The notes under the pieces: model-generated
Databases searched by the model: none
Seen by the model: only the letters and a program-made list of their open reading frames with translations
Told to the model about the DNA's origin: nothing
Made by a program: the position numbers and the translations under genes
Assembly (NCBI RefSeq): GCF_964204865.1
Contig: NC_135254.1
Span: 24,118,001 to 24,182,000, forward strand
Length of the DNA: 64,000 nucleotides
Origin: Styela clava
Taxonomy: Eukaryota
Direction of reading: 5' to 3'
Part shown: one piece after another, positions 51,363-54,300 of the stretch
Layout: every line of letters starts with the position of its first letter
How positions within the stretch are numbered: the stretch's first letter is position 1

Positions 51363-54300
51363 ATGCCTCCAAAATTTGATCCCAATGCTATAACAATAGG
51401 TAAGTGGCTTTAATAGTGAGATATATAAAGTAGCAACCCTACTTCGCTACTTTTATGCTTTTCATAAGAATTGGTTCAACTGTTTTTTATGATCGTCAAG
51501 CTACTGCAAGGTCCCACTTTATATTTCTCTGTTGTTGAGAGATGGTGTTGAGATCACTATCTATTAAAGGCTGACAAGTTCAGAGCCAGGCTCTGGGTTG
51601 ATTTTTGCGAAACGCTTGGCTTTGAACAAGGTCTGTACAAGCAGTCATTAATTGTAACAAGCTGAGACATTAATGAAGCTGGCTGATGCTTTAACCTCTA
51701 GATCAGTGGTCTTCAAACTTTTTGAGACACGACCCCATCTACAATATTATTACGTATGATAAGCACTCGCGATCCCAAGTTATATATATATATATGTTCA
51801 CCTACAGATACGAAAAAAATATTTATAAAATTCGGAAATTTATTAAAAGAACCCAACAACAACCATATTTAATCAGTGTGAAGAATGCGACTGCTTCCTT
51901 CCAACGAGATCTTGCATTCGTGGCTTAATGTTGCTTAAGCTCGAACGCAAATCGTGTTTTACGTTTAATCGATTTTGGTGCTTTGATTTTAGCAGACTCA
52001 TAGCACTAAAAGTCAAGCTTTCAAAAAGATTGATCATACGATATTTTTCTTTTATGTTTATCAGCCATTTAATAAATTGTAATTATCAATATGACGGTAG
52101 CCTGGAAAATGAGGCTTTGCAGTAAAAGCAACGGCCACTGTACAGTACATTTAAGACACAATAACGATTTACTTTAAAATATAAATTACTGTCGTTACGC
52201 AATAGCCTTATTATGAAAGAAGTCACTCCAATTCGAAATATCGAAACTTGCTAGCCTATGTAGCGTTATTCAACTTAACAGTGCAGACTACACGCTAAAT
52301 TTGTGAATATGATGTCATAATTGATTTATCGTAATTGCTCTTGATATTACCTGTCTGCGTGGTTGTGATTTATTCTTTTGTTTGAAGTATCTAGCGTTAA
52401 GCCGAGAAGTCACACACATAATAAAAGAAAAGACAACGATGGGCACTCGGCGACCCCAGAAATATTTAAGGCGACCCGACCCCACTTGGGGTCGCGACCC
52501 ACACTTTGGTGACCACTGCTCTAGATCATCTCTCTTATTGATTGGCTCCTTCAGACTGTCAGGCTTTGTAGTGTTACCGAGAAATGTATTTGCCATAGCA
52601 CTGCTGATTCAGTGTTTGTGTTACATGTAGATTTCTGGAGTTTTCAAGCTAGGAATGTAATATAACAAAATGCACAATGAAATCTATAATTATGTGCCTG
52701 TTTCTTTTTTAACTCGAAACTTACTAATTTTTATGAACTCTGTCTAAAGAAGACATCTTAATTCTGTAATTATTGCCCAGACAGCCGTAAATAATCACTG
52801 TCTACTAAAATTTTCCACCCCAACTCTGAATTAGTAGATGTCCTCGATAATCATTTTCAGAATAAAATTCTGAAGTAGTCTAGTCGTAACGAGCCATATT
52901 TTGATGTGCAGATGTTTTTACCATAATTAATTCGAAAAGCTATTTGATTCATTGGAAAGAATTTTTAAGCTTTGTTTCATTAAGTTCTTTTAATATTATC
53001 TTATTGACCCAAATTTCATTCGGTTGCCTTAAAAAATAGCGGAGATACAAATTTATTATACTATTTATCAGTCTCGCATTCTTGTGGTCACAGTTTTGAG
53101 TCGGCGTAATGCTAACCTTGAGGAAAATTGGCTTCCCAGGTGGCACTAAAAAGCTGATATTTACATTAATATTCGTTACTTTACGCTGGTCTATTGTTTA
53201 GTGGTCTACAGTGTTTTGCTTTTTAATAATCACTTCTTATGAATTTCCTTACTTTACAGTTCACTTAAGAGCTACAGGTGGTGAAGTGGGTGCCACAGCT
53301 TCACTTGCACCAAAGATTGGTCCTTTGGGTCTCAGCCCCAAGAAAGTGGGAGATGATATTGCTAAAGCAACACAAGATTGGAAGGGACTTAGGATTACTG
53401 TTAAACTCACTATTCAAAACAGGTTAGGCTTCTTAGATTCTTATGCCGAACTACCTTACATTTGTCTGCTATCGTTAGCATTTTTAAGGGAATCTTTCGA
53501 TTTTCTCTATGGAAAAGTGTTCTTGTTCTTAAAAATAATTCTGCAATGACTGCTAAGATTTCACTGATTTTGCCAGAACTCGTACCACACTTTGAGACTG
53601 AAATTTGACGAATCATACCATGCTACAATACCAGCAAAGTTTAGTAAGAATTCAAATTGCTCCACTGTTTTATTACCAAGTCATAAGTTTGATTGCGAGC
53701 CATTCATTTTCCCTTCATTCGGCTTCGATCTGAGCTTCTGTGACACCATTTATTAATTTCACTTGCAAGGAGTCGTTTATCCATTTATAACATAATGAAT
53801 ATTCTCGATTATTTCAGGCAAGCTACAGTTTCCGTTGTACCATCTGCATCATCTCTCATCATAAAGGCACTTAAAGAACCTCCTCGTGACAGGAAGAAAG
53901 TGAAAAACAGTGAGTTTACTACATATTGTCATTAGTGATGGACGGCATTTGACATATTTTTTGAATGAAGCCTCGACCAAAACAAAATGTTCAAGCTGAG
54001 CTTCAAGTGGTGTCAGCTCAATGTTTTTGTATGTGGAATTCATATAATTGTTGGTTTCATTTGCCTGCCATCCTAAAACATTATGTAGTAAGTTAGCATG
54101 GTTGGGGTTGGCATCCTATCCACACCTTTCGTGTAAGCGATTGGTGGAATTCAAGCCATCGGTGAGCAGACATCGATATCAAAGCATCTTTATTATTGCA
54201 ATATATCATGATGAATTGATGATTATTAATTGAAAGTGTTGTGAAATTTCAATTTTGTAATAGTCAAACACAGTGGCAACGTGACATTCGAAGAAATTCT

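Follow-up and report, generated by a model that had tools for sequence, protein, structure and literature searches.

RPL12 intron 1 and its repeats

The window analysed here is a 64,000-nucleotide stretch of the Styela clava genome (contig NC_135254.1, forward-strand positions 24,118,001 to 24,182,000), and it carries the gene for ribosomal protein RPL12 (uL11) on the plus strand. The coding part of exon 1 (51363..51399, plus strand) is defined by an ATG and a splice donor in the sequence, with the spliced joint present in contigs. Exon 2 (53260..53422, plus strand) matches Pfam PF03946 (E 1.2e-20) and the 60S L12 chain in the PDB (E 3e-27), which bears out the host gene named in the first-pass annotation. 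Between them, intron 1 (51400..53259, plus strand, GT..AG) spans 1860 nt and hosts the element described below; the exon 1-exon 2 joint across this distance was recovered in contigs of four of the eight runs compared (X6, X12, X15, and X18). A donor-like site lies at 51416, 16 nt into the intron; its use would add an in-frame stop, making it a possible NMD route. Downstream of the element, a simple pattern search found no donor-like site.

The element has a GC content of 41-44%, compared with 32-33% in its flanks. A second, older repeat occupies 52922-53170 of the same intron (about 250 nt, about 73% identity, more than 30 copies) and likewise reaches 45% GC. Elsewhere in the gene, Rfam scans of introns 2-4 gave nothing relevant. 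Intron 4 contains a GC-richer block at window positions 54400-54530 with a weak C/D snoRNA-like match (Afu_514, E 1.4; fold z -0.40). In vertebrates SNORA65 sits in an RPL12 intron, but its model had no match here. Upstream of RPL12, window positions 50524-50802 hold a tRNA-like, SINE-type repeat that is 74% identical to the repeat beside the RNase P copy on C8 described below.

Intron 1 is interrupted by an 815-bp MITE (51704..52518, no strand assigned) between two identical 8-bp copies of CTCTAGAT (left, 51696..51703; right, 52519..52526; both plus strand), as had been proposed. We take the MITE to be of hAT type: like members of that superfamily, it has an 8-bp target-site duplication (TSD) with central TA, terminal inverted repeats starting with CAG, many similar copies, and no long open reading frame. 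At least 45 matches were found in the genome (40 of 187 candidates scored), and TSDs of 7-8 matching bases flank 12 of 19 other copies. The insertion is young: its divergence from 17 aligned copies (L016 and L017 omitted as near-duplicates of L015) is 2.8-4.7%, and it carries 10 private changes in 781 columns (1.3%). One further copy (L007, C1:15425567-15426427) has a TSD resembling a telomere-repeat word.

Predicted fold of the MITE-excised element

The first-pass annotation had proposed that excision of the MITE and one TSD copy restores five nested helices. All 12 strands that it quoted lie where it had placed them, yet they are not predicted to form a single nested fold: in the excised sequence only P1, P3, and a GGTCTG/CAGACT helix are populated, and the best structure containing all five helices lies 4.3 kcal/mol above the minimum (pseudoknot not scored). 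P1 pairs 51503..51513 with 52562..52572 (both plus strand) over 11 bp, three of them G-U, or 12 bp counting one further outer G-U, at a predicted probability of 0.37-0.96; the GGTCTG/CAGACT helix reaches 0.45-0.98. P2 (51537..51546 with 52525..52534, plus strand), whose 3' strand borrows its first 2 nt from the TSD, has a pair probability of only 0.04 in the excised 247-nt sequence. It is hardly populated because it is outcompeted by a local hairpin that had been overlooked, HA (51535..51567, plus strand; 8 + 4 bp; z -2.52, 5/200 shuffles). HA takes the 5' strands of both P2 and the TTAAAG helix, and the latter has a pair probability of 0.00. The AU-rich, 8-bp hairpin H4 (51645..51676, plus strand) reaches 0.05-0.11.

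The robust part of the element is a P3-like hairpin at 51578..51627 (plus strand), which was correctly recognised but has 14 bp (two G-U) around a 22-nt loop rather than 13 bp. Its predicted probability is about 1.0 with and without the MITE, and its z is -3.51 (1/200 shuffles). Among 12 perfect helices of at least 13 bp on the plus strand of the window it is the most stable. The minus strand holds one unique hairpin stronger than P3, in addition to hairpins made by repeats; its 5' end is at 45636, and it has 15 bp, a 21-nt loop, and a stability of -24.1 kcal/mol.

Taken as a whole, the fold is weakly stable for its composition. The predicted energy of the excised 247-nt sequence is -72.2 kcal/mol (z -1.88, 12/300 shuffles, with ends chosen after the fact), and one of 11 control stretches, taken from the MITE, reached z -1.93; the proposed fold-energy check speaks weakly for the element as a whole and moderately for P3. 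The value of -1.88 does not discriminate in either direction, as the genome's own RNase P RNAs give -1.85 and -2.49 and its MRP RNA -0.21. The region contains ten other perfect helices of 8-14 bp besides P1, many of them mutually exclusive, among them a 10-bp alternative outer helix that crosses P1 (51520-29 / 52579-88, plus strand). Nor can P1 and P4 count as independent at the sequence level: CAAGGTC is present twice, and the 3' strands of the two helices form a near-tandem 8-nt repeat, from which a third, 10-bp pairing results. G-U pairs had been read as a sign of an RNA-level fold, an argument that does not hold because most chance helices in the window carry them as well.

Effect of the insertion

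With the MITE in place, neither P1 nor P2 is predicted any longer (probability 0 for both). In the modelled fold the insert pairs its own ends into a terminal stem, while P3, HA (probability 0.87-0.99), and GGTCTG/CAGACT persist. The suggestion that a looped-out insert might be tolerated is therefore half right in the model, which does loop the MITE out on that stem but contains neither of the two outer helices.

Two readings of the element as a functional RNA today draw on this fold. The first, which we consider unlikely, is a live cis-element: uL11 would control the splicing of its own pre-mRNA with the help of HA and P3, located 135-230 nt into intron 1, and the MITE would be harmless because it folds out. 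Autoregulation of uL11 through unproductive splicing is reported for nematode and human (PMC8047918, PMC4937301), and this precedent, the survival of HA and P3 in the predicted fold, and the in-frame stop that would follow use of the donor-like site at 51416 all agree with such a role. Like known AS-NMD elements (L10ARE; nematode rpl-12), the element is intronic, and its host is a ribosomal protein gene with orthologues that autoregulate through splicing. Those elements, however, are conserved in sequence and sit between two alternative donors, whereas here the 51416 site is the one donor-like site, with none found downstream by simple pattern; contigs drop rare isoforms. The lack of likeness to the rRNA region bound by uL11 also counts against this role, as nothing beyond 8 nt was found and 805/1000 shuffles did as well.

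The second is a live, non-catalytic RNase P-like RNA, released with the MITE looped out and bound by Pop1-type proteins, which we regard as very unlikely. The fold predicted for the unexcised sequence does combine GGTCTG/CAGACT, P3, and the MITE terminal stem, and intronic RNase P RNA protected by proteins has a precedent in arthropods (PMC6797745). Against this stand the P1 probability of 0 with the MITE present, the departures from RNase P RNA set out in the following section (missing P19, long J1/2 and J2/3, changed CR flanks), and the variation in the X5 contig.

Comparison with RNase P and MRP RNAs

The S. clava genome contains two intact RNase P RNA genes (114 and 112 bits), at C4:7353236-7353515 (L002) and C14:14843785-14844011 (L003). 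They are divergent (280 and 227 nt, 73% mean column identity), and the C4 gene has an additional block of about 46 nt ahead of CR-IV. A decayed, deleted copy of the C4 type lies at C8:21214555-21214744 (L004, 33 bits) with a SINE-like repeat directly behind it, and an RNase MRP gene is found on C13 (91.6 bits). A TCACCACAAAT box, presumably a Pol III PSE, lies upstream of both intact RNase P genes and of the MRP gene but is absent before the element.

The proposed resemblance to RNase P RNA holds for two 8-mers and their spacing. AAGGTCTG (51628..51635, plus strand), directly after P3, exactly matches the CR-I core of the genome's two RNase P RNAs, and TTCAGACT (52550..52557, plus strand) their CR-V core. 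The order P1-P2-P3-AAGGTCTG-...-P2'-TTCAGACT-4 nt-P1' is that of the genome's own RNase P RNA, as is the 11-bp P1. With the MITE excised, P1 of 11-12 bp closes at offset 4 after the CR-V core, and this 4-nt gap ahead of an 11-bp P1 is the same in C4 RNase P RNA.

The remaining architecture differs. J1/2 has 23 nt in the element compared with 2 in the genome's own RNase P RNA, and the linker between P2 and P3 has 31 nt compared with about 3, so that P2 neither directly follows P1 nor directly precedes P3. Where the intact genes have the P19 helix before CR-V, the element has 15 nt and no helix. As had been noted, there is no space for a normal S-domain with the T-loops of CR-II and CR-III: 91 nt separate the two cores, as against 149 and 195 nt in the intact genes, and the S-domain position is taken by a single hairpin with z -0.37 (H4). 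P4 consists of 6 bp followed by a U-U mismatch rather than 8 bp, and the P4-like helix is predicted as a nested helix that excludes P2 (pseudoknot not scored).

The annotation was also right to call CR-I and CR-V imperfect, since flanks that are invariant in both intact genes are altered. The CR-I flanks are GAAC/TACA in the element and GGG/AGAC in RNase P RNA, the CR-V flanks TTGGCTCC/GTCA and TAACTCAA/ACTC, and a CR-IV-like word lacks one base and is not in register with P2. According to one study, the conserved single-stranded residues of CR-I, CR-IV, and CR-V form the active site (PMC10966300). Since the age of the MITE is only about 1%, the loss of these residues predates its arrival, and the element was not a working RNase P RNA when the insertion occurred.

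Searches for descent gave nothing firm. Rfam returned no relevant match on the window, the split locus, or its 5' part, and an nhmmer profile of the two intact genes had no match on the excised sequence but scored 139.7 on the decayed C8 copy. Alignment to the genome's own RNase P RNAs was rejected as evidence of descent, the best of 16 scoring/target pairs standing at 13/600 shuffles; with the motifs held fixed, alignment stood at 17/1000 shuffles yet out of structural register. Alignment to MRP RNA did not rise above shuffles, and the MRP gene lies elsewhere, on C13. Identity as RNase P RNA is likewise rejected, given two intact genes elsewhere, no sequence similarity, and the discrepant flanks, P19, and S-domain. 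The family, profile, alignment, and box searches together thus dismiss the RNase P/MRP or scaRNA identity offered in the first-pass annotation.

Other RNA classes

The reported lack of convincing C/D or H/ACA boxes was confirmed, with no exact C box and no usable H/ACA box. As a C/D snoRNA or scaRNA the element was rejected on the missing C box, CTGA words that are not terminal, and a best rRNA antisense of 11 nt, to the genome's own 28S, at 17/100 shuffles; rRNA mimicry and antisense in general stayed at chance level. H/ACA pockets lie 14-16 nt from their boxes. Here, ACA occurs 9 nt past P3 and no H box lies between HA and P3, so the H/ACA class was rejected as well. Telomerase RNA was set aside with a longest TTAGGG-type template run of 7 nt at 51435, outside the element (repeat type assumed), and a pre-miRNA with a short stem and no Rfam match.

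That the element is nonetheless a snoRNA or scaRNA, telomerase RNA, 7SK, or pre-miRNA seems to us barely credible. Some room for it is left by searches with the SNORA65 and 7SK models, which had no match in the S. clava genome; this does not in itself show absence. A tunicate survey of 2016 did not find telomerase RNA and described ordinary RNase P and MRP loci (PMC5006418). The box failures above, the 7-nt limit on template-like runs in the intron, the short stem, and the lack of an Rfam match for any of these classes speak against it, as do the absence of a PSE-like box upstream and a T5 run inside the element.

Odds of a chance arrangement

Perfect helices are unusually abundant in the element, as its nested-helix-set score of 67.9 exceeds all 24 empty-site controls and all 91 window blocks (block maximum 63.3). 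The controls came from 12 of 19 MITE copies, both strands; seven were dropped for want of a matching TSD, and one of these (L019), with a MITE end still included, scored 87.1, higher than the element. P1 did not pass the G-U filter, and the element's score therefore counts the alternative outer helix instead. Genuine RNase P and MRP RNAs score only 28-42, so the metric reports perfect helices rather than likeness to noncoding RNA.

A descriptor shaped on RNase P gave a sharper contrast. P1, P2, and P3 of 12, 10, and 14 bp at RNase P positions sum to 36; when the two 8-mers were planted in a Markov background, 4000 simulations gave at most 31. P1 plus P3 of at least 26 bp arose once in 60,000 simulations with motifs planted, and lenient thresholds (8, 6, and 8 bp) were satisfied in 68 of 4000. 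By arithmetic, the 8-mer pair is expected about 0.004 times per 64-kb window. Genome-wide, six pairs occur at similar spacing, compared with four for a reversed control, and none of the six chance pairs has a P1 or P3 longer than 9 bp. The geometry is thus unlikely per window; however, the descriptor was tailored to the observation with thresholds fitted to it post hoc, the scan was large, and the genuine C14 RNase P RNA fails it with 5, 0, and 5 bp. In sum, the signal exceeds chance weakly by energy, moderately for P3 and the helix set, and strongly only under this tailored descriptor.

Chance alone is accordingly a serious contender: tolerant intron DNA with one strong hairpin, its helices and 8-mers picked from many possible pairings and remembered motifs. 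This would account for a z of -1.88 that a MITE control stretch equals, ten competing helices of 8-14 bp, an equally strong hairpin at 45636 on the minus strand, an 11-nt 28S antisense matched in 17/100 shuffles, two insertions tolerated in one intron, and the lack of any Rfam or profile match. P1 even has a chance partner inside the unrelated MITE, where a 12-mer (52112..52123, plus strand) that is a trait of the MITE family is identical to the P1 3' side at 11 of 12 positions. What we take to be likenesses to words of 7SK, telomerase P6.1, and human MRP RNA further illustrate how cheap matches of 8-11 nt are. The joint geometry argues in the opposite direction, with a probability of about 2e-5 once the motifs are given, or about 7e-8 per window if free choices are left aside; with a factor of 100 for those choices, it would by arithmetic be expected only about twice in 250,000 windows. 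The location also argues against chance, as ribosomal protein introns are usual hosts of noncoding RNAs.

Copies and alleles

The element is single-copy in the 377-Mb genome, a paralogue search having returned its own locus alone, and a 22-nt pattern with three mismatches found two other matches compared with one for a control. Junction contigs bearing the MITE were present in two other samples from two studies, reaching into it by 49 letters (X5) and 40 letters (X6); pieces of the X1 junction, 30 and 28 letters into the MITE, were not counted. No empty-site joint appeared among the matches listed in contigs of eight of 21 runs, and contigs show presence rather than absence. Runs from organisms B, C, and E covered only the MITE, the exon, and scattered short pieces, and such gaps in coverage are no evidence of absence. 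A pattern of exon 1 and its donor found nine metagenome loci of other eukaryotes without intron similarity (best E 0.3), three of which share the N-terminal peptide and are cut inside intron 1; the same pattern gave 0 matches in genome and viral contigs.

The X6 contig is identical to the reference over 51564-51743. The X5 contig has five other letters and 13 missing over 51507-51752 (246 nt), where errors are possible because depth is 4.2, and bin arithmetic places its 13-nt gap inside 51508-51584; further down the intron it shows six other and six missing letters in 714 nt. Three listed changes in X5 spare the helices, two falling in the P3 loop and one keeping H4 paired as G-U. This pattern favours the cis-element outlined above, but chance alone would yield three compatible changes in about one case out of three, and the 13 missing letters tell against it. 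Overall, nothing in these two low-depth contigs shows present-day constraint on the element.

DISCUSSION

We tentatively favour, slightly ahead of chance, the view that the element is what remains, now dead, of a structured intronic RNA with a skeleton like that of RNase P RNA. About half of the weight we give to this view falls on descent from RNase P RNA and about half on a structured RNA unrelated to it, in which the 8-mers would match by accident. The first-pass annotation had held a pseudogene allele in reserve as a fallback, and of its readings this one fits best. The view starts from observed features: the motifs, the MITE, the host intron, the single copy, the intact RNase P and MRP genes elsewhere, and the lost flanking residues. 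It is favoured by the geometry in simulation, the rarity of the 8-mers, the 4-nt gap shared with C4, the helix-set score, and the GC contrast. That the RNA is dead is indicated by the MITE in X5 and X6, the gap in X5, the P1 and P2 probabilities of 0, and the second, older repeat. Counting against a remnant are the fitted thresholds, the failure of C14, the low helix-set scores of genuine RNase P and MRP RNAs, a z of only -1.88, the loss of the missing residues ahead of the young MITE, the chance P1 partner in the MITE, the non-independence of P1 and P4, the lack of similarity to the genome's own RNase P RNAs, and an old repeat of 45% GC.

Before the insertion, the remnant's ancestor is predicted to have formed P1, P3, and GGTCTG/CAGACT, with P1 lost once the MITE was in. 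Its skeleton of closing helix, strong hairpin, and P4-like helix would have resembled RNase P RNA. It would have been made by Pol II with the RPL12 pre-mRNA, freed by splicing, and trimmed back to P1, in the manner of arthropod intronic RNase P RNA. Because the CR-I, CR-IV, and CR-V residues of the catalytic core are missing, this RNA was probably non-catalytic, in keeping with two studies (PMC10966300, PMC13022451). At present, splicing probably removes the intron, which is then degraded without yielding a product, and the element would be dispensable.

Two papers describe the arthropod precedent, in which RNase P RNA of insects and crustaceans is embedded in introns and made by Pol II, with RpL36A named among the recipient genes; in Drosophila, splicing frees this RNA and its ends are trimmed as far as the closing helix (PMC4287351, PMC6797745). 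The intronic RNA needs its own proteins for protection, according to one of them (PMC6797745). The element resembles these RNAs in lying on the sense strand, in an intron of a highly expressed gene, with a ribosomal protein gene as host. However, the insect and crustacean RNAs have retained the conserved catalytic nucleotides and taken the place of the Pol III gene, whereas S. clava has stand-alone RNase P genes that share an upstream box, and its intronic sequence is both degenerate and split by the MITE. Among the papers listed in literature searches, none describes an RNase P-like RNA, intronic or degenerate, from a tunicate, and only two Drosophila papers came up; supplements may hold conserved intronic structures that go unnamed.

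A more far-reaching version, which we consider improbable, is that ascidian RPL12 intron 1 encodes a Pol II-made, non-catalytic derivative of RNase P RNA, serving as scaffold or decoy for Pop1-type proteins, intact in relatives and disrupted or stretched by the MITE here. As part of the same improbable reading, such a derivative would keep P1, P3, and P4 and dispense with the S-domain and the catalytic residues.

If the element is a remnant or the product of chance, it is a minor matter of a MITE in a tolerant intron. Should orthologues confirm the derivative, it would give an animal a third RNA of the RNase P/MRP type and extend intron-embedded RNase P derivatives beyond the arthropods. If true, this would mean that a tRNA-processing scaffold is tied to ribosomal protein output.
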